Counted from the stretch's first letter, positions 26,560 to 39,302 are shown. The stretch is 45,829 nucleotides of DNA from a virus (IMGVR_UViG_3300045988_073964:1-45829); one strand, 5' to 3'. Notes: a model not told the origin generated them from the sequence alone. Program-made: numbers and translations.

Positions 26560-29295
26560 ATGGCGAACGGACTGCAACCGTATTACCTGCTGCAAAGCGC
26601 ATTTACTGGCGGTGAAATATCTGCCGAAGTGGCAAACCGCGTGGATTTGGACAAGTATCAGTTTGCTGTGCTGCAAGCCAGGAACTGTCTTGTAAAGCCG
26701 CACGGTCCTATTTATCGCCGCCCGGGAATGATGTATGTAAGCAGGACAAAATACAACGACAAGAAAAGCATTGCCGTTGCTTTCAATGGAACTGACAACA
26801 ACGACTATTTATTGGAAATAGGCGATAAATATATAAGAGTTTTTAGAAAAGGCGAATATTTGGGAGTAGAAATAATTACTCCGTTTACGGAAGATACATT
26901 ACAGGATTTGAGATTTATTCAAAGCGCAGATACTATGTTTATTGCCAGCGGCAAATATCCAGTGAAGCAGCTTGCGAGATACTCGGACACGGATTGGCGC
27001 TTTAGTGATTTTGAAATTATGGATATGTATTTCAATGAGAGGGAAGATTTTGCGAATGAATACAAAGAGTACAAAACAGCAGGGACGTATTCTTTCAAAC
27101 CTGCTATAAGCGGAGAGTATCGGGTAGAACTTGCCGGGGCCGGCGGCGGTGGTAACGGTGGAATGCTTAAAGAGAATGTTTTTATGCCGCTTATTTATGG
27201 CGGTGCTGGTGGCCGCGGTGAGCTAGTGTCGCAACGCGTGACGTTAGATAGCAGCACAACTTACTCTATAACCGTCGGAACTGGCGGCAAAAAAGGTATA
27301 AGTTATTTGCAACCCGATGGAGACGGAAACTCTACACTTGTGTTTGTGAATGGCGAAGATGGTGGAGCTAGTACAGGCTTTAGCATTACAGCAAGAGGCG
27401 GCGGAGGCGCAACTAAGCAGAACGGCATAAGCTATGGTAACGGCGGCTTGGGTGGACGAAAAGGCAGCCGTAAAGTTTCTCCGGGGGACGGCGCTGACGG
27501 CTGGGTTAAAATTTCTTACACGGGCAACACAGAGCTTACACCGTCAGGCATAGCTGGAGAAATTACGTTGACCAGCAATAAGGAAACGTTTACCAGTGAG
27601 CGCAAGGGCGCGAAACTGAAATTGCGGCAAGAGATAGCAGCTAAGACTGTATCAGCATCTAATGCCACAACAGAGAATGTCAAAGTTGGCACTAACTGGA
27701 AAGTTATTTCTCATGGCACATGGTCCGGCAAACTGACGATAGAAAAAAGCAACGACGGCGAAAGCTGGAAAAAGTACCGTGAGTATACGTCAAAGGACGA
27801 TTATAACCCATCGGAAAGCGGTAGTGTGACCGAGGAAATGTGGCTGCGTGCAGTGTGTAGCGTTACCAGCGGCACTTGCAACGTTGACCTAACCGCTATG
27901 CCTTATACGGCGGAAGGTGTTGTTACAATAACCGAATGCGTGAGCGGCACGCAGGCTAAAGCTCACGTGGATAAAGAGTTGGCGAATACCGATAAAACGT
28001 CCAACTTTTCCTGGGGCGCGTGGAGTGAAGAATTTGGCTATCCGCAGACTCTTTGCTTTTTCCAAGACAGGTTGTGTTTTGGTGGCACGAAGAGACAGCC
28101 TTATGTTGTGTGGATGAGCAGAACCGGTGACTATTCTAATTTCAGCGTAGAAAAAGCCAGCGGAACAGTCACGGACGATAGCGCGATTGCTGCAAGCTTT
28201 ATCAGCCGCAAGCAGTTTAAGATTCTACACTTGATTGCAAGTACGGATTTAGTTGTTTTGACGGTTGGTAACGAATGGACAGTCAGTGGCAGCGATACTG
28301 TGACTCCTGCAAAAATAAATCCGAAGATGCAGGCGACACGCGGCTGCAGCAAGACTGAGCCGCTCATGATTGGCAACAGAATTGTGTTTGTACAGGGACG
28401 TGGCAGCACGGTACGCGATATGGCGTATAGCTATGAAACTGACAGCTATGACGGTAACGACTTGACGCTACTTGCAAAGCATATTGTAGACGGATGCGAG
28501 ATTATTGACAGCTGCTACAAGCAAGAACCTGACAGCACGCTTTATTTCGTGCGTAGCGACGGAACTGTAGCTTGTCTTGCGTATATTCTGGACCAAAAAG
28601 TTTACGCGTGGAGTACGATAGAAACAGACGGCGAGATAGAAGCTATTGCTGCGTTGCAGGAGGGTGAGCAGGATGTTATCTATGCTATCGTAAAACGCAC
28701 GATTAACGGCGTGACGGTGCGCAACATTGAGTATTTCCGCAACAATCCGACCAGAAGCGCAGAGCCTCACGACTATGTAATGCTTGACGCAGCTGTGGAG
28801 TTTGGCAATGTCGGCAAGGCTGCGGCTGAAACGACGTTCCAAGTGCCGGAGCTGGCGGGCTGCACGGTTGACGTTTTGGGCGACGGCAGAATGTTTAAGG
28901 GATTACTCGTTGATGCAGACGGCGCTGTGACGCTGCCAGCGCCTGTACAGCGAGCTATTATAGGCTTGCCCTATACAAGTATCGTGGAACTGCCAAACGT
29001 CGAAATTAAGACGGGTGACGGCACTATGCAGGGACGTAAAAAGCAGATTAGTAACTGCGTGCTGCGCCTGCAAAATTCACTAGGCGGCGAGGTTGGCCCG
29101 GATAAAAATACCATGGATATTATCAACTATGACGAAACTAGCGCGGTGAGCGACATCCAATTGTTCACCGGCGACAAAGAAATGACGCTGCCTATCGGTG
29201 GCTTTAATAACGACGGCAGAATATATATCAAGACGGATTCACCATATCCGTTTACTTTGCTAGCGGCAATTAGGGAGGTGTCTTTCGGTGGCTAA
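26560..29295 (+). CDS. Tail tubular protein B-like, with an inserted glycine-rich domain
   Basis: 911 aa. The N-terminus LQPYYLLQSAFTGGEIS...YRRPG is typical of this family. The Gly-rich insert spans 27118..27520. Confidence 0.65.
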   Translation: MANGLQPYYLLQSAFTGGEISAEVANRVDLDKYQFAVLQARNCLVKPHGPIYRRPGMMYVSRTKYNDKKSIAVAFNGTDNNDYLLEIGDKYIRVFRKGEYLGVEIITPFTEDTLQDLRFIQSADTMFIASGKYPVKQLARYSDTDWRFSDFEIMDMYFNEREDFANEYKEYKTAGTYSFKPAISGEYRVELAGAGGGGNGGMLKENVFMPLIYGGAGGRGELVSQRVTLDSSTTYSITVGTGGKKGISYLQPDGDGNSTLVFVNGEDGGASTGFSITARGGGGATKQNGISYGNGGLGGRKGSRKVSPGDGADGWVKISYTGNTELTPSGIAGEITLTSNKETFTSERKGAKLKLRQEIAAKTVSASNATTENVKVGTNWKVISHGTWSGKLTIEKSNDGESWKKYREYTSKDDYNPSESGSVTEEMWLRAVCSVTSGTCNVDLTAMPYTAEGVVTITECVSGTQAKAHVDKELANTDKTSNFSWGAWSEEFGYPQTLCFFQDRLCFGGTKRQPYVVWMSRTGDYSNFSVEKASGTVTDDSAIAASFISRKQFKILHLIASTDLVVLTVGNEWTVSGSDTVTPAKINPKMQATRGCSKTEPLMIGNRIVFVQGRGSTVRDMAYSYETDSYDGNDLTLLAKHIVDGCEIIDSCYKQEPDSTLYFVRSDGTVACLAYILDQKVYAWSTIETDGEIEAIAALQEGEQDVIYAIVKRTINGVTVRNIEYFRNNPTRSAEPHDYVMLDAAVEFGNVGKAAAETTFQVPELAGCTVDVLGDGRMFKGLLVDADGAVTLPAPVQRAIIGLPYTSIVELPNVEIKTGDGTMQGRKKQISNCVLRLQNSLGGEVGPDKNTMDIINYDETSAVSDIQLFTGDKEMTLPIGGFNNDGRIYIKTDSPYPFTLLAAIREVSFGG

Positions 29296-29785
29296 GGAAT
29301 TTACGTGTGAGATTATTACAAGCGAGGACAAAGAGAGTGTTACTCCGTTAGTCGAAGAATTATTATCGGACATAAGACCGCAGGACATGGAAGATTTGGA
29401 GGCCTGCGGTCACGACGTAACTTTCGTTATTATCGGCAGCATTAAGACGAGCGACGAAACAAGAATTTATCGCGGCGAGGACGGCAAGCTATTATGTTTG
29501 TTTGGTAAAGGGTGGCCGTCATGGGAAGCACCTGGCCGCCAGATTTGGATGCTGGGCACGAACGAGCTTTATAAAGGGTACGTGAAAAGCGTACTCTTTA
29601 CAGAAGCACGGCGAGTGTTGAAAAAATGGGTAATGCAACACGGCATTGTCCATAACGTCGTGTATGAGAAAAATAAGACAAGCGTAAAGTATTTGTCCAG
29701 ACTCGGGGCACGTTGGTGCCCTGAGTGCCTGAAGAATAACGGCAAGAGATTTTTTGAGTTCTTCATCACGGAGGTAAGGGAATAA
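29288..29785 (+). CDS. T7 Gp13-like (DUF2833-like) internal virion protein
   Basis: IWMLGTNELYKG...VHNVVYEKNKTSVKYLSRLGARW...GKRFFEFF pattern. GTG start overlapping the upstream stop. Confidence 0.45.
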   Translation: MAKEFTCEIITSEDKESVTPLVEELLSDIRPQDMEDLEACGHDVTFVIIGSIKTSDETRIYRGEDGKLLCLFGKGWPSWEAPGRQIWMLGTNELYKGYVKSVLFTEARRVLKKWVMQHGIVHNVVYEKNKTSVKYLSRLGARWCPECLKNNGKRFFEFFITEVRE

Positions 29786-30435
29786 TGGGTATTGAAGCGG
29801 CATTGTTGGGCGTACAGATGGCAACGCAGCTAATGGGCCAGCGCCAGCAATATAAGCAACAACAGCGTATGTATGAAGCGCAGGCGCAGGCAGCACAGCA
29901 GAATGCAGCTATCATCAGCAAACAGCGCGAGCAGCAGGCAGAAGCCTACGCGCAGAAGCAAAGGCAGCTTAACGATAGATTTAGACTTGCACGTGGTCAG
30001 GCTAGAGCAGAAGCAGGCGCGAGTGGCTTGACTGCCGACGGAAGTGTAGCGGATATTCTTTCGAGCAGCGAGGATGCTTACAAGCAGGATAGTATCAACC
30101 TTTTGCAGAATCAGCGTAATGATTCGTGGAGCAGCTATGTAAACGAGGTCAATTATCGTAATCAGGCGAACGCCTATAATACTGCTGCAAGCAATGCCAG
30201 AAAGCAGGGACATCAAAAGATGTTTGCTACGCTTATTGGTGATGCTGCTAATATTTATTCTAAAGGCATGGACAAAGGCTGGTTTGGCAGCAAGGAGACG
30301 AGCTGGGCAGATGCTAACTCTAGCTTAGGCCTGCCGACTAGCAACAATATTCAAGGCTATAATCTTTATAATCAAGCCAAAAAGAATAACCCCTATTTAA
30401 ATTTTAACGGCAATTTATTTACAACAGGCTATTAA
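29785..30435 (+). CDS. Internal virion protein (Gln-rich)
   Basis: 216 aa with a coiled Q-rich N-terminal half. Its position is equivalent to T7 gp14. Confidence 0.5.
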   Translation: MGIEAALLGVQMATQLMGQRQQYKQQQRMYEAQAQAAQQNAAIISKQREQQAEAYAQKQRQLNDRFRLARGQARAEAGASGLTADGSVADILSSSEDAYKQDSINLLQNQRNDSWSSYVNEVNYRNQANAYNTAASNARKQGHQKMFATLIGDAANIYSKGMDKGWFGSKETSWADANSSLGLPTSNNIQGYNLYNQAKKNNPYLNFNGNLFTTGY

Positions 30436-30447
30436 GGAGAACGACGA

Positions 30448-32553
30448 ATGAAAATTACAGGCTATCAGCAGAGTATAGATACAGGCGGCACAGCGCAGGC
30501 GACTGTAAAAACCGTTGGCAATACGCTTGCCTATGGAACTGACGGCAGCGGTCTTACCGCTATGTCAAAGGCCGCAGGACAATGGGCAGCGGCTATTGAA
30601 CAGCAGCATGAGAACGAGGACAAAGAAAATATACTGAACGCTATGGACATTTTCAATAAGAGCCGCTATAACATCATGTACAACGAGGAAAGCGGCTTGA
30701 TGAATACGAAGCTGGAAGGCAGCGCCGGTATTGGGCAGAGCTATTCTGAGCAGATTGACAAGGCACGCGCGGACGTGCTGGGTAATATCAAATTGCATAG
30801 CAGAAAGAATCAGCTTGCGCTTGACCATCTCATGTATAACAGTGCGCGTGAAGGCTTTCAGACCGTCGACCGCTGGCAGACCAAACAGCATGAGGCGGTA
30901 ATTGATTTGCGGTATGGCAATAATATGCAGAATTACACGGAGTTTGCACAAAAGAATTGGAGTGACGGGCAATTACTGGATAATGCTATTCAAGGAGCAA
31001 AGCTTACTACTGATATGATTTACGGCAAGCGCGGTAAGGAATTTGTCGAAGCGAAAACCAGAGAAAGTGTGGGCGCTATTGTAGCTGGCGCGGTGGACGC
31101 AAGTATTACGCACGGTGATTACAATAATTCGCGAAAGCTGTTAGACCAATACGGTAGTTTGTTAAATGCTAATCAACGTGCGGCGTTTGAAAAAGCGATT
31201 TACACAAAAGAAGAAGGAGCTTTTGAAAGCGACTTAGCAAAAAGACTAGCTGGGCAATACGGTGACGATGAAGAAGCAGTTCGGGCGGCACTTGCAAAAG
31301 AATATGCTTATTCCGGCAATGAGGGTAACGGCAACATTGAACAGCAAGCGGAAGGTACAAGCTGGGTGCGCAACAGCGGCGTATCTTTCGAGGGTGTTAA
31401 GCCACAGGTGACAACGGGCCTTTCGGATATAGCGAAGCAATTTCAGGATATGAGCGGCACACAGCTTATCGTTACCAGCGGCACGGATAGCACAAATATT
31501 CATGCGGCAGGAGCGCACAGTCACGGTGCAGGCGTAAAGCTTGATGTTGCAGCGGACTGGCTAGAGAACGCAGACAACCGCAGAAAATACATTTCTTATC
31601 TGGAAAGCAAAGGTATAAAAGTGTTAGACGAATATTCTAATCCGTCGCCGAACTCTACAGGCGGACATCTTGATTTAGATTTCACAGATTACAAAGGTGG
31701 CGGCGGCGCACAGAAAAGGCTTTTGAATCACGACGAGCAGGAGCGTATTCTCCAAGATTACAGGCGCGAGGTTGCGGCTAACAAACGAATTAAGCAGTAT
31801 CAGGAGACACAGCTTTATAATACTATTAAGCAGGATATTTTCGGTATGCTGCAAAACGGCACAAGTTTAAGTGATGCTATAGCGTGGGCAGAAGCGCAGG
31901 CAGGAAGTGACGTTGACAGGTATGTCAGCTATACGAACGCCGTAAAATCTATCTATGGCGCAGGCGGCAACAGCACAAGCGGCAGCAGAGGTGAAAAACT
32001 GGGGTCTATTGGCAAAGATGCACTTTTAGATATGCTGGGTTCTGGTGCTTTTACGGGCAAGAACAAAGCGTATTTTATGGCATATGCTGCTAATCACGGC
32101 GCAACAAACAAGGAAATGGACGCACTAGATAAAGGCTGGGATGACTGGTTGAACGGTGCAGGACAGTTTGCTTATAACTGGAATAACCTTGCAAAGTCTG
32201 TAATGGGCAAAAATAACGACGCAAATATAAAAGCAGGATTGATAAAAGGCGGCAAGAATTTTGTGCGCGTTTATCGCGAGCAGCACAAAGGAATGAATCC
32301 TGACGAATCATTGATTTTGGAGCAAATGAACAAAGACATTACGGACAAAGTTTGGGGCAGTTATTCCCAACATCGCGACTGGCTGCCTGATATTAATTTC
32401 CAGATAAAGGGCAATAATGCTTTAATGTATGCGGCTGGTATCGCTAGTGTCGAAAAGGTTGGCGACGATTGGTATCACGTAGTCTGGGCAGATGGCACGG
32501 ACGGCAATATCAACGGCGGTTATTTAGACGAACTGATTAACGGGGGACATTGA
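30448..32553 (+). CDS. Internal virion/ejection protein with a peptidase M15-like (zinc D-Ala-D-Ala carboxypeptidase fold) domain
   Basis: TSGTDSTNIHAAGAHSHGAGVKLDV ... GGHLDLDF (H..D...H metal-ligand pattern). Confidence 0.6.
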   Translation: MKITGYQQSIDTGGTAQATVKTVGNTLAYGTDGSGLTAMSKAAGQWAAAIEQQHENEDKENILNAMDIFNKSRYNIMYNEESGLMNTKLEGSAGIGQSYSEQIDKARADVLGNIKLHSRKNQLALDHLMYNSAREGFQTVDRWQTKQHEAVIDLRYGNNMQNYTEFAQKNWSDGQLLDNAIQGAKLTTDMIYGKRGKEFVEAKTRESVGAIVAGAVDASITHGDYNNSRKLLDQYGSLLNANQRAAFEKAIYTKEEGAFESDLAKRLAGQYGDDEEAVRAALAKEYAYSGNEGNGNIEQQAEGTSWVRNSGVSFEGVKPQVTTGLSDIAKQFQDMSGTQLIVTSGTDSTNIHAAGAHSHGAGVKLDVAADWLENADNRRKYISYLESKGIKVLDEYSNPSPNSTGGHLDLDFTDYKGGGGAQKRLLNHDEQERILQDYRREVAANKRIKQYQETQLYNTIKQDIFGMLQNGTSLSDAIAWAEAQAGSDVDRYVSYTNAVKSIYGAGGNSTSGSRGEKLGSIGKDALLDMLGSGAFTGKNKAYFMAYAANHGATNKEMDALDKGWDDWLNGAGQFAYNWNNLAKSVMGKNNDANIKAGLIKGGKNFVRVYREQHKGMNPDESLILEQMNKDITDKVWGSYSQHRDWLPDINFQIKGNNALMYAAGIASVEKVGDDWYHVVWADGTDGNINGGYLDELINGGH

Positions 32554-32554
32554 T

Positions 32555-35500
32555 ATGGAACTAGCAGAATTAGATAAAGAATTTAATCAAAGAGTACAAG
32601 AAAAGCAAAATTGGTATAATGGCGGGTACGCAAGAGACGTACAGAGCAATTTAACACCGCCGGAAGTGTTTGGCTTTATTGAAGAGCAAAAAACGGCTCA
32701 GCAGGAAGCAGCAGAAACACGAGGTTTTGGCACAGCGATGCTGAACGGTGTAAAAGGCAGTGTTCGCGGACTTTTAGGCGCTGCTAAGGCATTGGTAGAT
32801 TCTAATATCGCGGAGCATGAAAGGGAAGACCCTAACTACCGTCCATACGGAGATTTCAGCGGCACTTTGCAGACTGGCATAGATTACTTACAGCGCGAAG
32901 AAGTGAAGGCTGACAGCGCTGCAGGGCAGCTCGTGTATGACTTGACGGAGGGCGCAGTGCAGCTTGCGATGCAGGCGGCAGTAACAGCCGCTACGGGCGG
33001 CACAGCTGGCGCTGTATATATGGGCGCTAATATTGCCGGCGACCAATATATAGAGCTACGTAAAGAGGGTGTTGACGCAGAGAGGGCTGCGCTAGCAGGC
33101 TTGATGAACGCTCCTTTTCAGGCCGCACTTGAAAAAATTGGTATGGGCAAAATCATGGCGAAGCTGCCAGCAGGCTCAGGATTAAAAAAGAAGCTGGGCG
33201 AAGTCTTAAAAGCTAGTCTTGAAGAAGGCGTTACCGAAGGCCTGCAAGAATTACCGGAACAGGTTACAAATATCTGGGCGAAGGACAAAAATGCCACGGC
33301 GGAAAGCATGGCGGCGAAATGGGGCGAGAACTGGGAGCAGAATGTCAAAGAAGCAGGGTATAGTGCGTTGCTTGGCGGCATTCTTGGCGGCAGCGCTAAG
33401 GGATTGCATATAATAGCTAATAGTGTTGGGCGTAAGGTTGGCGAAAAAGTAACCGAAGTAAAAAAAGAGCAGCTTGTAGCTGATGCAGAGCGCGTAGCTA
33501 AGAGCGGAGTGAACCCTGAATACGCCGCTGCGCTCATTGATGCTAATAGTCAAGGCGAGACTGTAACCGTGCAGGCTGCTGACCTGAACGCATTTAAACA
33601 GCAGACCAACGGTGCGAAGTTGATGGAAACGCTGGGCGTGACGGAAGAACAGATTGAGCAGGCGACCGAGAACGGGCAGGATATTGATATTAGCAGAGGA
33701 CGCTTTACTGCCGCTATGGTTGAACATAAGGGCCTGTATGAAGCGACTAAGGATAGCATGATTTTCGACATTGACGGCGACCTGTCTACAAATGCCGCAG
33801 AGAATTTCAAGACGCTGAAAGCTGATACGAAAGTATCGGATGAGCAGATGCAACAGTTGGATTTAGAGGTTAAGAATGTTGTTGATAGCGCGATTGCCGC
33901 AGGCATGAACAAGGCTCACGCCGAGAATTTGCAGCTCATGCTTGAAAGCAGGGCGATTATTGCTAGTCCTGAAAATCCTGCTGCGTGGCTGCAAAAAAAC
34001 AAACTGCGGTTTGAAAATGGTGGAAAGAAGCCACTTAAAAGCGGTTGGTTTAGCCAAAGCGGTAAGCTGAATACCGACAAATTTTTTACTACTCAAATTA
34101 CAGGTAATGAATTGGGTAGTTATCGTGATTTAAAAGATTTGCGTTCTAAAGCGATAAATTGGTATAGAACAAATTTGCAGGGGCAGAAAGTAAAAAATAG
34201 CGTATTAGGTGAAATTAGAATAGGCAAGGGTTTTTCTGAAAATGACGTTGGACTTACTGGCAGCGGCAGACGCAAAATGTCTTCTACCAGCGCTAAGGCT
34301 GAAAAACTGCTTGCTGTGCGTTACCTTAAAGAAATTATTGAGGGCGGCAATTTTGTAACTGAAGCTGCTGCGCATAAAGAAAAACATTCAGGAGAGAATT
34401 TTTATTATATTCATTCTCTACTGAATGTGAATGGCGAAAATCGTTATGTAGTTGTAACCGTGAGAGAATTAAACAATAAAGAGCTTGTTTATTACAATCA
34501 CAATGTGTTTACTGAAAATGAGTATAAAAAAACAGAGGACGCGCTTAGGCCCTCGGATTCTGCAATTTCAAATGCGGGCCAGTATCCTAAGCAACAATCC
34601 TCTTTTAAAGATAGTGTAACACAAAAAGCGGACGTTTACAAGTCGCAAACGATAATAAACGGCACACTAAAGGATAAAGGCATGATTTCTCCGATGGAAA
34701 ACGGAGACTATATTATCACTTTATTCAAGGACGCAGACGCAAGTACGGTTATCCACGAGACAGGTCATTACTTTGTCGATACAATGATTAACGAGGCTAT
34801 TGCAGACCCTAGTAATACTAGATTGGTTAAAGACGCAAAAATACTGTTAGAGTACGGCGGTATGACGCTGGAACAATGGAAGAGTTCTAGTCTTGAAGAA
34901 AAGCGCGCTGCCCACGAGAAACTTGCAGAAGGCTTTGAAACCTACATCATGGAGGGTAAAGCGCCTAGCGCTGGACTGCGCAAGGCCTTTCAACGATTTG
35001 CAAAATGGCTGACGGCTATTTACTCTAAAATTGCACGCAACGAAAATGCTGCGGACATCAACGACGATGTGCGTGGAGTATTCGACCGTATGCTAGCAAG
35101 TCAAGAAGAAATAGAGATGCAGGCTAAGTTAAACGGTATGTTTAACGAATTGCCGTCGGAACTTACTAGCAAGCTGCCGCCAGAAGCTAAAAATGCCTTG
35201 CTGGATAAAATAAGCAAGGCGAAGGATAAGGCTGTAGATATTCTCACAAGGGAGATGATGAAAAATTTCAACGCAGAGCGCAGGGCCGCCAAGGCTGCGT
35301 ATATTGCAGAAATTACGCCTGAGATTGAAGAGCTTATTCATCGCGATAAGGTTAATCAAGGCAGGGACTTATTGGCGTACCATTTCGGCGGGGAAAAGGA
35401 AAAGAACAATCCGTATTTTAAAGATGAGAACGGCAAAGCTCATGCTAACAAGCCTATTAAAGTACACAGAGATGCCAATCCATCTATCATTGCGCGTAAA

Positions 35501-38500
35501 TACCGCCACGCTATTGGCAGCGTCTTGCCCAACTACAACGACGTGCTGCAAGATACCAGAGCAGCTATCAATGACAGGCTGAATCCCATTATCGAAGATT
35601 TGAAAAATAGCATTGTTGAATACAACGAAAGTCTTAGAGACGCGTGGGCGCAGGGTGGTGCAGAAGGATACTGGACGCTTGAAGGCAAAAGCATAGACCC
35701 TACAATCATCAAAGACTATGTGAAAGCTAACGGCGGAAAGTACGATGATAACGTTAGGGCAAAACTTGAAAGAGACGGCTATGTGTTTCATCCGGCAGAC
35801 GAAGAAGTGTCGGGCGGCAACTGGTACAGGAATTATGTAGAGGAAAACGGTAAAAAGAAACTTTCAAACAAAGAACTCGAAAGAATTGCACGAGATATTT
35901 ATTCTGGCAATGATTATTATGAGTATGACCCCGAAGCAAAAATGTATGAGGGAAACCCAGAATACGAAGCAGAGATACAAAACAAAAAGGCCGAACTGGA
36001 TGAACTGTATAGACTCAAAGAGAAGCTTGAAAAAACGCCCGAAGGTGTAGACCTTGTGGAGATGTCCAAGCGCAGCGCTTTGTCCGATGAGCAACGTGTA
36101 CTGTTTGAAACCATTGCTGAGGAAGTCGGGTATTCCAGCGGTGATGAAATGGCGCAGGATATTTTAAGTAAACCGTCAGAACGTCAGATGGTGCGTAACT
36201 TTGTCAACGAAGCAGTACAGGCACGTTTTCCTGATATTTACGCAGAGCGTGCGCTGACGGAAGAGAAAGCGCGTGAAGCATTGTACAACGACGAAAGCGG
36301 CGAGGTTATTGCGCTTGAGCAGCAGCTTATCGAAAGCTACTTAGATGAAGCCGTTGGCCGTCAGGAGCGCAAGCAGGAACGCATGAATATGGCTAAAGCT
36401 ATGAAGCAAAGAGCAGAGGTTGCTGCTAAAAATATTATTCAAAGTATGACTGTTGATGATATTATTAAAGGCAATGGCAGGAAGTTTATGCTGGCTGAAC
36501 GCAGGGCAGCGGCGAACGCCGTTAAAGCTATCAAAGACGGTGATATGGATGCAGCTATGGAATATAAGCGCCAGCAGCTTATTAACCATGAGTTGTACCG
36601 TCAAGCTTTGCAAGTGCGCGGAAAAGTTAAAAGTGCGCAGCGTTTTATTCGGAAAATGGCCAACATGAAGAAAGAAAATTTCGGAACGCAGCAGCATTTC
36701 AACCAGATAGCAAGTCTTTTGGAGCGCATGGGTATTAAACGCAGAGGCTACGACAGAGCAGGAGATAATCAGTTCTTGCTAGCCTATGTCGAAGAAATGC
36801 GTAGCAAATGCGGTGAAATTGTCGATATTCCGGAGTTCGTGCTGAATGAAAGCAATGACATATCCAGTCCGTCGAATCTGCTTTTCTCGCAGTATCAGGA
36901 CGTTATCAACGCTATGAAGAATATTTATGCTATTGCCAAATATGACACGAGAATGAGCAAGATGAGCAAAGAGCAAACCTTTGCTGAAACTAAGCGCGAC
37001 ATTATGGAGCATCTGCGAGAGCTTGACGACGTATATACTCCGCGTATGGGCGGCGATAGGAAGAAAGGCTTTATTAAAGGCTTTACAGACAGCATAAAGG
37101 ACTATAGAAATGTTTTGCGAAACGCTGACAACTTCTACCTTGCTATGGATAATTGGACGGACGGATATTTCACGAAAAACTGGTACGACACACTCAGCCA
37201 TTGCGCGGATGCAGAAGCTACTATGACGTTGGAATATCAGGACAAATTAGCTACAGCCTTGAAGAAATGGGAGCCGGATAAAGCGACGGCAAAAGCGCAT
37301 GACGCTGATGTGTATTACGAAGAACTCGGAACCAGTACCGACAAAAATACACTTGTCACTATGCTTTGCAATTTGGGCAATGAGGGCAATAAGAATCGCT
37401 TGTGCAGCACGCCGCCAGAGGGAGCAAAAAACTCTAAGTTGTGGGTTAAGGAGTCAGCGCTTGTCTCTAAAGAGCAGGCTATCGAAATGACACACCAGAA
37501 CATTGTAGAGTTTTTGAGCAAATATTTGACTAAGGCTGATGTTGAATATGCGCAGGCGCGTATAGATGCAGCAAATGCCTACTATCCGCAAATCAGGGAT
37601 TTAAATATCCGCGCTAAAGGCTTTGCCCCACCGGCAGTAGATGCTACGCCGATGACGATGAAGCTTGCTGACGGAAGTGTGGTTTTGTTCAAAGGCGGCT
37701 ATTTCCCACTCGTGCGCGACAGCAGAATGGGCAGTGCGCCGAACGGACAGAACAGGCTCAGCGCTACGGATGAATATCCGGGCGCAGGTATTAGCACGAT
37801 GCGGACAGATGCTGCCAGCAGCAAGGGACGTATTGGCGGCAACTATCCGGTTAAATTAGACCGTGGCTGTGAGATTACGCCTATTATGGATACTATCCAT
37901 GATATTTGCTATCGTGAAGCTATGATGGACTTCCGCAAGATTTTGAACGATGCAGAGATTTTTGCAGAGCTTAAAACTAAGCTTGGTGAGCAGAATGTGC
38001 GTCTGCTGCGTGAACAACTGGAAGCGTGCGCTAATCCGTACAGCAACAAGCAGGCTGCGCAGGCCGAAAAAATATTCTCTAAGACAGCGGACATCTTGCG
38101 CAGGACGGCTACGAACGGCGCTATCATGTTAAACTTAAAGACCGCGGCGCAGAACTTCAGCAACATCTTGCTATACGGAAACAGCGTTGAAGGATTTACG
38201 CACGCAGATGCTTTCCGCGCTATGTCACGTGCGTTCAGCGTACAGGGCAGAGCTGATGTTGATGCTATCTGCCGCAAGAGCGCCTTTATGCGTGAGCGCA
38301 TGGAAACGCCAGACGTGGCCTTGAATGACATAAAGAACCGCAAGGATTTGAATGTTGTTGAACGCAACACGTTGAAGTACGGCGCTAGGCTGCTTGGCTA
38401 CACTGATATGCTGACAGCGAAGCCGGTATTCGCAGAGGCCTACATGAAGAAAATCAACGAAGGTGCAAGCGAACAGGCAGCAATAGACTTTGCTAACCGT

Positions 38501-39196
38501 GTTGTTCGTCGCACGCTGGGCAGCAGCAGAATGCAGGACGTATCAAGCTTGCAGCGTGGCAGCAAATTGTTTAGACTCTTTACGATGTTTCAGGGCTTCT
38601 TCAATACGCAGTTTAACCAGTGGGATAGAGAATATCACATCGTGCGTAAGCTGTGGAACGACGGCGAAAAGAAAGAGATGATAGAACGCCTAATAGCTTT
38701 TGTCAGCGCTAAATTCTTGGGCGCGTGCCTGATGAACGTTGCGATAGCAGAGCTTTCCTTAACAGCGCCTTTTGAAAAGGATAAGGACGGCTATCGTAAA
38801 ATCAGCAAAGAGCTGCTTAACTATCCTATTTCTATGGGTGGACCTATCGGACAATTCTCGAACGTTGCCTTGCAGAATTTGCTCGGCATGAGAAACTACG
38901 GCTATCGCCTGACAGCTACACAAGGTCTGTTAGATAAAGGCCTAACGGTTGCACATCGTGCTGGCGACGCTGCTAGAGGCGAGAAGGACGCAAGCACTTT
39001 GCTTGAGCCTGCTGCTTATACGATTGGCGCGGCATTCGGCGTTCCGGGCGGCGTATTTAACCTGATATTCAACGGCATTGATATTTACGACGGTACTATG
39101 GATGCAGAACTTGCGGACATTATGGGCCGTCGTCCGAAGAATGAGCGCAAGCCAGAAGAACAGCTTGAACTTGAAAAGGAGAGAGAAAAATACTAA
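32555..39196 (+). CDS. Giant (2213 aa) internal virion / DNA-ejection polyvalent protein with a zincin HExxH motif
   Basis: Single uninterrupted ORF. VIHETGHYF at 34754..34768. The N-terminus is Ala/Gly-rich and helical. Its position is equivalent to T7 gp16. Confidence 0.8.
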   Translation: MELAELDKEFNQRVQEKQNWYNGGYARDVQSNLTPPEVFGFIEEQKTAQQEAAETRGFGTAMLNGVKGSVRGLLGAAKALVDSNIAEHEREDPNYRPYGDFSGTLQTGIDYLQREEVKADSAAGQLVYDLTEGAVQLAMQAAVTAATGGTAGAVYMGANIAGDQYIELRKEGVDAERAALAGLMNAPFQAALEKIGMGKIMAKLPAGSGLKKKLGEVLKASLEEGVTEGLQELPEQVTNIWAKDKNATAESMAAKWGENWEQNVKEAGYSALLGGILGGSAKGLHIIANSVGRKVGEKVTEVKKEQLVADAERVAKSGVNPEYAAALIDANSQGETVTVQAADLNAFKQQTNGAKLMETLGVTEEQIEQATENGQDIDISRGRFTAAMVEHKGLYEATKDSMIFDIDGDLSTNAAENFKTLKADTKVSDEQMQQLDLEVKNVVDSAIAAGMNKAHAENLQLMLESRAIIASPENPAAWLQKNKLRFENGGKKPLKSGWFSQSGKLNTDKFFTTQITGNELGSYRDLKDLRSKAINWYRTNLQGQKVKNSVLGEIRIGKGFSENDVGLTGSGRRKMSSTSAKAEKLLAVRYLKEIIEGGNFVTEAAAHKEKHSGENFYYIHSLLNVNGENRYVVVTVRELNNKELVYYNHNVFTENEYKKTEDALRPSDSAISNAGQYPKQQSSFKDSVTQKADVYKSQTIINGTLKDKGMISPMENGDYIITLFKDADASTVIHETGHYFVDTMINEAIADPSNTRLVKDAKILLEYGGMTLEQWKSSSLEEKRAAHEKLAEGFETYIMEGKAPSAGLRKAFQRFAKWLTAIYSKIARNENAADINDDVRGVFDRMLASQEEIEMQAKLNGMFNELPSELTSKLPPEAKNALLDKISKAKDKAVDILTREMMKNFNAERRAAKAAYIAEITPEIEELIHRDKVNQGRDLLAYHFGGEKEKNNPYFKDENGKAHANKPIKVHRDANPSIIARKYRHAIGSVLPNYNDVLQDTRAAINDRLNPIIEDLKNSIVEYNESLRDAWAQGGAEGYWTLEGKSIDPTIIKDYVKANGGKYDDNVRAKLERDGYVFHPADEEVSGGNWYRNYVEENGKKKLSNKELERIARDIYSGNDYYEYDPEAKMYEGNPEYEAEIQNKKAELDELYRLKEKLEKTPEGVDLVEMSKRSALSDEQRVLFETIAEEVGYSSGDEMAQDILSKPSERQMVRNFVNEAVQARFPDIYAERALTEEKAREALYNDESGEVIALEQQLIESYLDEAVGRQERKQERMNMAKAMKQRAEVAAKNIIQSMTVDDIIKGNGRKFMLAERRAAANAVKAIKDGDMDAAMEYKRQQLINHELYRQALQVRGKVKSAQRFIRKMANMKKENFGTQQHFNQIASLLERMGIKRRGYDRAGDNQFLLAYVEEMRSKCGEIVDIPEFVLNESNDISSPSNLLFSQYQDVINAMKNIYAIAKYDTRMSKMSKEQTFAETKRDIMEHLRELDDVYTPRMGGDRKKGFIKGFTDSIKDYRNVLRNADNFYLAMDNWTDGYFTKNWYDTLSHCADAEATMTLEYQDKLATALKKWEPDKATAKAHDADVYYEELGTSTDKNTLVTMLCNLGNEGNKNRLCSTPPEGAKNSKLWVKESALVSKEQAIEMTHQNIVEFLSKYLTKADVEYAQARIDAANAYYPQIRDLNIRAKGFAPPAVDATPMTMKLADGSVVLFKGGYFPLVRDSRMGSAPNGQNRLSATDEYPGAGISTMRTDAASSKGRIGGNYPVKLDRGCEITPIMDTIHDICYREAMMDFRKILNDAEIFAELKTKLGEQNVRLLREQLEACANPYSNKQAAQAEKIFSKTADILRRTATNGAIMLNLKTAAQNFSNILLYGNSVEGFTHADAFRAMSRAFSVQGRADVDAICRKSAFMRERMETPDVALNDIKNRKDLNVVERNTLKYGARLLGYTDMLTAKPVFAEAYMKKINEGASEQAAIDFANRVVRRTLGSSRMQDVSSLQRGSKLFRLFTMFQGFFNTQFNQWDREYHIVRKLWNDGEKKEMIERLIAFVSAKFLGACLMNVAIAELSLTAPFEKDKDGYRKISKELLNYPISMGGPIGQFSNVALQNLLGMRNYGYRLTATQGLLDKGLTVAHRAGDAARGEKDASTLLEPAAYTIGAAFGVPGGVFNLIFNGIDIYDGTMDAELADIMGRRPKNERKPEEQLELEKEREKY

Positions 39197-39266: not shown

Positions 39267-39302
39267 AACGTCTATCTTTTTTTAGATAGACGTTTTCTTT
39301 TT
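39267..39302 (+). terminator. Rho-independent terminator
   Basis: aacgtctatc/gatagacgtt stem followed by a T-rich run. Confidence 0.75.

Follow-up and report, generated by a model that had tools for sequence, protein, structure and literature searches.

Genomic context of the giant gene

The viral record IMGVR_UViG_3300045988_073964:1-45829 is complete, 45,829 bp in length, and carries direct terminal repeats; this whole stretch of DNA is referred to below as the window. The gene considered here is a giant open reading frame (ORF) on the + strand, which runs unbroken from the ATG at position 32555 to the TAA at 39194–39196 and encodes 2213 aa. By gene position and collinear sequence similarity, the product is a giant internal virion protein of the Bbp10 type (PHROG 9880), in which a fixed chassis surrounds one exchangeable cargo slot; a module with an HExxH motif, apparently zincin-like, stands next to the slot. 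The regions of the protein and the features around the gene are listed in Table 1.

The genes of the window follow the order terminase, portal, protease/scaffold, major capsid protein, tail tubular proteins A and B, a gp13-like protein, a member of the gp14 family, a 701-aa protein in the position of gp15, the giant ORF and the tail fibre. The ATG of the giant ORF lies 1 nt past the TGA of the 701-aa ORF, and a GGGGG run resembling a Shine–Dalgarno sequence is located about 10 nt before it. Translation bears out the first-pass annotation of the window, which described one uninterrupted 6.6-kb ORF of 2213 aa, and the gene order agrees with its placement of the product in the position of the largest podoviral core protein, that is, in the slot of T7 gp16. 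The three genes directly upstream (29288..32553) are the presumed partners of the giant protein in an ejection module. A reading as a tape-measure or repeat protein was considered as well; it is ruled out by the podovirus tail-tube A/B genes and the T7-type gp13/gp14 neighbours.

Table 1. Regions of the giant protein and features of the surrounding DNA; positions are counted from the first nucleotide of the window.
Feature	Position (nt)	Strand	Residues (aa)	Basis and remarks
Whole ORF, Bbp10-type (PHROG 9880) giant internal virion/ejection protein	32555..39196	+	1–2213	Translation, phrog_9880, tblastn
N-terminal helical Ala/Gly-rich module	32555..34033	+	1–493	Clade conservation, composition
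Uncharged Gly/Ala stretch	32951–33040	+	133–162	Composition
Uncharged Gly/Ala stretch	33359–33427	+	269–291	Composition
Cargo slot	34034..34672	+	494–706	Alignment with close relatives; LPD3 cassette here
Pfam LPD3 (PF18798)	34127..34492	+	525–646	E 1.2e-19 / 1e-21; family of unknown function
Low-confidence linker	34559..34633	+	669–693	AlphaFold2 pLDDT <50, model residues 165–189
Zincin-like HExxH module (predicted)	34634..35149	+	694–865	Invariant columns, AlphaFold2, profile search
Clade-specific expansion	35327..35971	+	~925–1139	MAFFT, BLAST high-scoring segment pair boundaries; lacking in distant homologues
C-terminal all-alpha body	35972..39193	+	1140–2213	AlphaFold2, Foldseek, invariant columns
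Hydrophobic helix	38678–38746	+	2042–2064	Hydropathy
Hydrophobic helix	39008–39079	+	2152–2175	Hydropathy
gp13-like upstream partner	29288–29785	+		PHROG internal virion protein families
T7 gp14 family upstream partner	29785–30435	+		Pfam T7_gp14, E 1.2e-11
701-aa gp15-position protein, upstream partner	30448–32553	+		PHROG internal virion protein families
Terminator-like hairpin	39267..39294	+		11 pairs and a T run; after the giant gene, before the tail-fibre gene

Family assignment

The phrog_9880 profile, annotated in PHROG as of unknown function, covers aa 669–2172 of the giant protein with E 1e-148. A tblastn search reveals about 25% identity across aa ~690–2175 in 50 phage records (E 1e-16 to 1e-43), including Bbp10 of phage BPP-1 (E 2e-40), gp40 of Caulobacter phage SR18, gp16 of Pseudomonas phage AF, ORF24 of Xanthomonas phage CP2 and the relatives in Vibrio phage MZH0603, Nostoc phage JY18 and Cobetia phage Carin1. 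All of these named relatives occupy the same gene position as the giant ORF, and the same gene order is found in BPP-1, AF and CP2. Membership in the Bbp10-type family is indicated both by the collinear similarity of the HExxH module and the C-terminal body and by the location of the gene between the gp14/gp15-like genes and the tail fibre. On these grounds, the giant protein is a new member of the Bbp10-type, or PHROG 9880, family, a kind already described in 2016–2017. Bbp10 is, for the epsilon15 group, the homologue of IVP-D (internal virion protein D) of T7, and IVP-D-type proteins host domains bound for the cytoplasm (Hardies et al. 2016, PMC4819975). The gene order, size and alpha-helical content of the giant protein are those of the extended IVP-D family.

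Relatives of the giant protein are found in at least 565 contigs of IMG/VR. A search of 1.84 billion representatives with a hidden Markov model (HMM) of the HExxH module, a profile itself built on the motif, matched 12,084 clusters (50% identity) when the cut-off was E ≤ 1e-3, and 10,371 when it was E ≤ 1e-10. Family members are often annotated as 'crystallin beta/gamma motif-containing protein'. No solved structure matches the whole protein in sequence, an NCBIfam scan of it found nothing, and a literature search for virion proteomics of the Bbp10-type family gave nothing usable.

An exchangeable cargo slot

The slot is delimited in close relatives by two conserved anchors, NKLRFENGGKKP (aa 482–493) and DKGMISP (from aa 707). 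Both anchors were found in 106 cluster representatives. An LPD3 cassette fills the slot in 56 of them (plus one deletion remnant), 37 have an empty slot, and unknown cassettes of 192, 164 and 382 aa are present in nine, two and one, respectively. One relative (P0006) shares aa 1–345 with the query at 100% identity, yet the 192-aa cassette replaces LPD3 there. The GC content is 0.36–0.39 over nt 33950–34700, as against 0.45–0.55 across most of the remaining gene. Two alternative cassettes have no Pfam match; an ART-like look of the 382-aa cassette (FHGT...GWGLYF...VVYDD) was set aside as a guess.

LPD3 was the sole significant Pfam domain when the giant protein was scanned as eight tiles at E ≤ 10; PafC-HTH, M32 and PBECR1 stayed below threshold. 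In the AlphaFold2 (AF2) model, LPD3 consists of helices followed by a 4-stranded antiparallel sheet, the predicted local distance difference test score (pLDDT) being about 75 for the sheet. The sub-threshold PBECR1 match (E 0.09) falls within LPD3 and involves the C-terminal half of this RNase family; LPD3 may be a divergent BECR-fold domain. The linker between the cargo and the HExxH module is, judging by the model, probably disordered.

A [KR]xGWxQ-like peptide borders the cassette at either end. The upstream copy reads KSGWFSQ in the query, the downstream copies in relatives (P0004, P0006, P0015, P0100) read KNWYKQQ, DGWQQN or KRGWKQN, and in empty-slot relatives the two copies stand side by side (KRGWLQKAWNKRGWKQ; KRGWLQKAW-NKRGWKQ). 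From its placement, the peptide may act as a joint for recombination or as a site of cleavage. A more specific proposal, which we consider doubtful, is that the HExxH module is a self-processing protease cutting at the [KR]-x-G-W-x-Q-type flank, so that the same peptide would serve as recombination joint and release site, and that LPD3 and the three other cassettes are effectors that are injected and target host defence or RNA.

In more distant members of the family, the cargo varies further. The N-terminal parts of 33 homologues contain nine Pfam families of this sort: LPD22 (21 homologues), ART-PolyVal (8), PBECR5 (5), LPD3 (3), MuF_C (3), GGDEF (2), PBECR1 (1), LPD23 (1) and DUF7178. The last N-terminal cargo domain of Bbp10, SR18 gp40 and AF gp16 stops 43–83 residues before the motif. 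In 125 full-length representatives, between 240 and 1960 aa precede the motif, and the stretch that follows it, with a median of 1240 aa, is mostly 1165–1420 aa long. The HExxH module always lies at the boundary of the variable and constant parts. These alignments indicate that the protein is a fixed chassis around one exchangeable slot, with the cargo N-terminal to HExxH. The first-pass annotation was right in placing the protein among the polyvalent proteins: domains characteristic of these (LPDs, ART-PolyVal, PBECR and others) are present, as LPD3 here and as the families listed above in homologues, and unrelated effector domains occur in varying architectures, the query having one recognisable cargo and the HExxH module, and the variation being found among relatives.

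A predicted zincin-like module

The sequence HETGH occupies aa 734–738 (nt 34754–34768) and is the sole HExxH in the protein. It was first reported as the nine-residue string VIHETGHYF; the motif itself is real, but the coordinates then attached to the string span HETGH alone. In 2.6% of composition-preserving shuffles, one HExxH or more arises; HETGH alone is therefore weak evidence, and the weight rests on conservation. Seven named phage homologues all contain D-[LA]-S-T-x-x-H-E-x-G-H and, about 50–70 residues on, [HQ]E[QKT][FWL]A[RE][GA][FN]ExY..EG[KRN][AS]PS. Invariant in 39 non-redundant sequences with 26–70% identity to the query are H734, E735, H738, E788 (nt 34916–34918), A791, E795 (nt 34937–34939), P804, W818, Y823, R845 and A848. 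Three relatives have an HExxxH variant (HESIGH, HEALGH, HETLGH) in which both His residues are kept; this variant was described in peptidases of polyvalent proteins by Iyer et al. (PMC5512222). At least 148 of the 149 top representatives of the HMM search keep the motif. The question posed at the outset, whether HExxH is conserved among homologues, can be answered in the affirmative for all those examined, in which E788 and E795 are likewise kept; the sample is biased by the fetching of some loci with a pattern containing the motif, a bias that touches the HMM search less.

The AF2 model of aa 505–905, calculated from a 44-row alignment, has pLDDT 77–97 over aa ~705–815, a region that comprises a sheet and two helices, one with HExxH and one with Glu. 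Predicted strands at aa 695–701, 704–713 and 719–723 precede the HExxH helix at aa 729–750 (pLDDT >80), and the predicted helix at aa 780–799 bears both E788 and E795, which lie on one helix face because they are seven residues apart. The topology agrees with that of the zincin-like core described in PMC5512222, a variable insert separating the two helices. Thus, two traits of zincins are recognisable: an HExxH on a helix, conserved in homologues, and, in the predicted topology, a putative Glu ligand downstream and a preceding three-stranded sheet. Conservation and predicted topology suggest that the module is zincin-like, and protease activity would be the best-supported reading of it.

The loop between the HExxH and Glu-bearing helices appears tolerant of insertion: three homologues from a Vibrio-phage-like clade (L076, L080, L087) have about 190 additional aa there. 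A second, different HExxH is present in the variable N-terminal part of AF gp16 (L005, aa 807) and CP2 ORF24 (L006, aa 926), as well as in L026 (aa 626), L031 (aa 1473), L034 (aa 629) and L075 (aa 64), examples being VVMHEVQHAIQ and STLVHEVAHIIQ. Judging from the motifs, these homologues may hold two metallopeptidase-like modules.

Regions outside the slot and the HExxH module

The N-terminal module is rich in Ala and Gly, as had been observed in the first-pass annotation, A+G amounting to 20–33% per 100 aa over aa 1–400. Remote members of the clade share 30–39% identity with it over aa 5–506, and there are weak matches to Bbp10 aa 246–333 (E 0.004) and to two other homologues, L073 and L081 (E 1e-4). 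The two uncharged Gly/Ala stretches are candidate membrane-inserting segments by analogy with gp50 of phage N4. That protein is composed of a membrane-inserting helical N-terminal domain (NTD), an RNA polymerase, a part C1 with a conserved HExxH and a part C2; its NTD has predicted spanning helices at residues 224–278 and inserts into nanodiscs (PMC13434306).

The expansion lies between two conserved blocks that, by the BLAST boundaries, are 235 aa apart in the query vs 63 aa in Bbp10. It contains a module (…DE.G.AHAN…ANP.IIARKYRH…NYN..L.DT…LNPI…) of which there is one copy here and a tandem pair in 2478-aa relatives (P0071-type). The expansion module has no Pfam match.

The C-terminal body was modelled with AF2 over aa 1140–2213 from a 40-row alignment; the model has pLDDT 80.8 and a predicted template modelling score (pTM) of 0.73, and is nearly all helical. 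Foldseek finds no relative of it in the PDB, where the best E value is 0.49 and the rows are transporter-like helical noise with TM ≤ 0.1. In BFVD, 94 matches have E ≤ 1e-3, the best being 2.5e-35, with TMq up to 0.71. The 50 matches listed are all pieces of large proteins of uncultured phages, mostly second or third fragments, and their names reflect diverse N-terminal domains: LPD, ART-PolyVal, MuF_C, nuclease, N-acetyltransferase and 'crystallin beta/gamma'. The motif GGYxP at aa 1714–1718 (GGYFP, nt 37694–37708) has G1714 and Y1716 invariant, and G1715 and P1718 in at least 90% of sequences.

The first-pass annotation noted no recognisable motif after HExxH, and indeed the 1475 residues that follow contain no Pfam or NCBIfam family at threshold. 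It also supposed that most of the C-terminal two-thirds may include uncharacterised effector domains. The missing family annotation over the ~1475 residues would agree with further effector or enzyme domains there, as would the presence of a few invariant polar residues (E1255, Y1716, R1759, S1909) and the ~200-aa expansion of unknown nature specific to the clade. We nevertheless rate hidden effectors as very unlikely: the recognised cargo sits N-terminal, and aa 1140–2213 (the last ~1070 aa) are collinear and conserved in all family members regardless of cargo, with a near-constant length. They are also predicted as a single mostly helical body, and the model matches only the equivalent parts of giant phage proteins and no enzyme fold in the PDB. 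Because the C-terminal body is shared by members with differing cargos, alignments and model indicate that it is a common chassis and not a string of concealed effectors.

Possible role in ejection

The explanation that fits best, and that we regard as probable when taken as a whole, layout and release role included, is as follows. The virus is a BPP-1/epsilon15-like podovirus from the gut, and its largest internal virion protein, the product of the giant ORF, is a polyvalent ejection protein of the Bbp10 type with a fixed chassis, one swappable slot and a zincin-like module. Gene position and the assignment to IVP-D suggest that the giant protein would be packaged alongside the gp14- and gp15-like proteins and would be expelled before the DNA. 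Its N- and C-terminal hydrophobic parts may help to build or anchor a trans-envelope conduit, with the cargo exposed to the cytoplasm. The HExxH module would bind zinc and cleave the polypeptide chain, the linker or junction beside the cargo being the likeliest site, so that the cargo would be freed. A cargo-releasing role for peptidases in polyvalent proteins was proposed by Iyer et al. (PMC5512222).

Several results weigh against this explanation. Neither profile nor fold searches connect the module significantly with any characterised zincin. Profile searches of the PDB with aa 687–2213 and aa 690–880 gave nothing significant, the top matches being TraO (E 0.096) and penicillin G acylase (E 0.28), and the best zincins being Spartan (E 0.66) and neurolysin (E 1.6). 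The module is not detected by MPTase-PolyVal or the other peptidase models of Pfam; in a scan of 39 members one by one, peptidase matches (M3, M78, Mx, M32) were sub-threshold and confined to a few members, among them Peptidase_M3 with 4.7e-4 in one of the 39 sequences. A Foldseek search of the PDB with the two-domain model of LPD3 and the HExxH module returned no match with E ≤ 1e-3. Its top rows, namely DcrB, PsbP, EagT6, CdiI and cystatin/NTF2-like proteins (E 0.015–0.4), are small sheet-plus-helix folds that probably match the LPD3 sheet, and they were discarded as uninterpretable. The literature search found no report of packaging, ejection, zinc binding or cleavage for any family member. 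In 37 of the 106 close relatives, the slot is empty and yet the HExxH module is kept, so that cargo release cannot be its sole role. For the C1 part of N4 gp50, an HExxH is described but no protease activity, nor is any cleavage of the polymerase (PMC13434306). Finally, hhalign comparisons of family profiles with T7 gp16, epsilon15 gp17, the C-terminal domain (CTD) of N4 gp50 and an alignment of seven N4-like CTD sequences were not significant (E 0.065–0.19, probability <1%, with shallow alignments).

Some of these same observations favour the main rival explanation, in which the HExxH module is non-proteolytic, a conserved metal-binding or structural/regulatory subdomain like C1 of N4 gp50, and the cargo stays tethered to the membrane-anchored protein. 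The part order of N4 gp50, whose C1 is only said to bear HExxH, the retention of the module in empty-slot relatives and the want of significant similarity to any peptidase all fit it. It is a possible explanation, although clearly the less probable one, since the general-base Glu is as invariant as both His residues and two downstream Glu residues are invariant too; a merely structural site would not need such a full catalytic-type signature. Moreover, the module always lies at the border of cargo and chassis, adjoining the probably disordered linker, and no homology to the N4 CTD could be demonstrated.

It is also conceivable that the HExxH module is a cell-wall peptidase, cutting peptidoglycan cross-links in the periplasm for the passage of the conduit. 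Such a role was proposed in a phi24B preprint for the MuF-C metallopeptidase domain of gp47, another giant ejection protein, and muralytic domains are found in T7 gp16 and many IVP proteins (PMC4819975). The giant protein, however, has no similarity in Pfam or the PDB to M15, M23 or other families of peptidoglycan peptidases, and its homologues carry domains acting in the cytoplasm (ART, GGDEF, RNase-like PBECR) N-terminal to the module. The muralytic role is, in addition, probably already filled by the 701-aa protein, which has a weak match to an endolysin family (E 5e-6) and whose counterpart in BPP-1, bbp11, contains a transglycosylase. We therefore consider this explanation unlikely.

The cargo-releasing explanation can be addressed in the gut-phage clade, a natural experiment of unusual cleanness in which slot content is all that distinguishes near-identical proteins. 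Such variation makes it testable whether the cassettes act as injected effectors and whether the HExxH module frees them. More than 12,000 clusters (50% identity) match the HExxH-module profile, and in the reachable literature no member has a demonstrated activity, structure or packaging. The gene is otherwise ordinary; its most useful feature is that near-identical gut phages offer a clean slot with five states.

Downstream hairpin and likely hosts

Given the terminator-like hairpin downstream of the giant gene, the tail fibre may be transcribed separately or via read-through. Near-identical phage DNA was not found by megablast against 50,697 phage records. The sole matches to the giant protein among 185,579 species genomes are two homologues: one with 44% identity (L092) on a contig (104 kb) from an uncultured Phascolarctobacterium, the other with 57% identity (L091) on a contig (47.7 kb) assigned to a 'Bacilli bacterium' bin. 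These matches offer a lead that the hosts of this phage group may be Negativicutes; such a host would fit a T7-type ejection module because it has two membranes.

Relation to other ejection proteins

The closest known system is the Bbp10 family itself. The giant protein has the same gene position, an HExxH module with identical invariant residues and a collinear C-terminal body of about 1000–1100 aa in common with it, at 22–25% identity and E 1e-40 or better. Unlike its Bbp10 relatives, which have LPD22 at the N-terminus and PBECR1, ART-PolyVal or LPD23 as cargo, the giant protein has no LPD22, carries LPD3 and contains the additional expansion of ~200 aa (aa ~925–1139). The hosts of the Bbp10 relatives are Proteobacteria, whereas those of the gut phage, on the lead given above, are likely Negativicutes. 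With the polyvalent proteins described by Iyer, Burroughs, Anand, de Souza and Aravind in 2017 (PMC5512222), the giant protein shares the giant multidomain build, the virion module, an LPD domain, the HExxH topology and cargo swapping; it differs in having only one recognisable cargo and an HExxH module that escapes Pfam MPTase-PolyVal.

Like T7 gp16, the giant protein is large and helical, is encoded after gp14 and gp15 and has a presumed role in the inner ejectosome. T7 gp16 has a lytic transglycosylase domain, which the giant protein lacks, and it has neither the HExxH module nor the cargo slot. In the non-significant hhalign alignment, the family motif GGYxPxxYD aligns with HKGTYVPHVYD of T7 gp16 (aa 660–670). 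The GGYxP region was also picked in single-sequence hhalign comparisons with both T7 gp16 and N4 gp50 (FKGYIPVE), a hint that is not counted as evidence. The motif may be a relic that marks the IVP-D superfamily.

The C-terminus of N4 gp50 and Bbp10 were placed in one extended IVP-D family by Hardies et al. 2016 (PMC4819975) by means of custom HMMs limited to podoviruses. Foldseek rows contained no N4 chains; the library was cut on 2026-04-08, and the inclusion of N4 in it is uncertain, although the chains are in the PDB sequence copy. N4 gp50 (PDB 9PNQ and others) nevertheless offers the nearest parallel in layout, the parts following one another in the same order, with LPD3 standing where the polymerase stands; the N4 cargo, unlike LPD3, is a 1100-aa RNA polymerase. 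The C2 part, of ~110 kDa, is alpha-helical and without structural relatives (PMC13434306). N4 gp50 is an ejected internal protein of a podovirus, as the giant protein would be, judging from gene position and family. By this analogy, the giant protein may work like N4 gp50 rather than be a member of its family.

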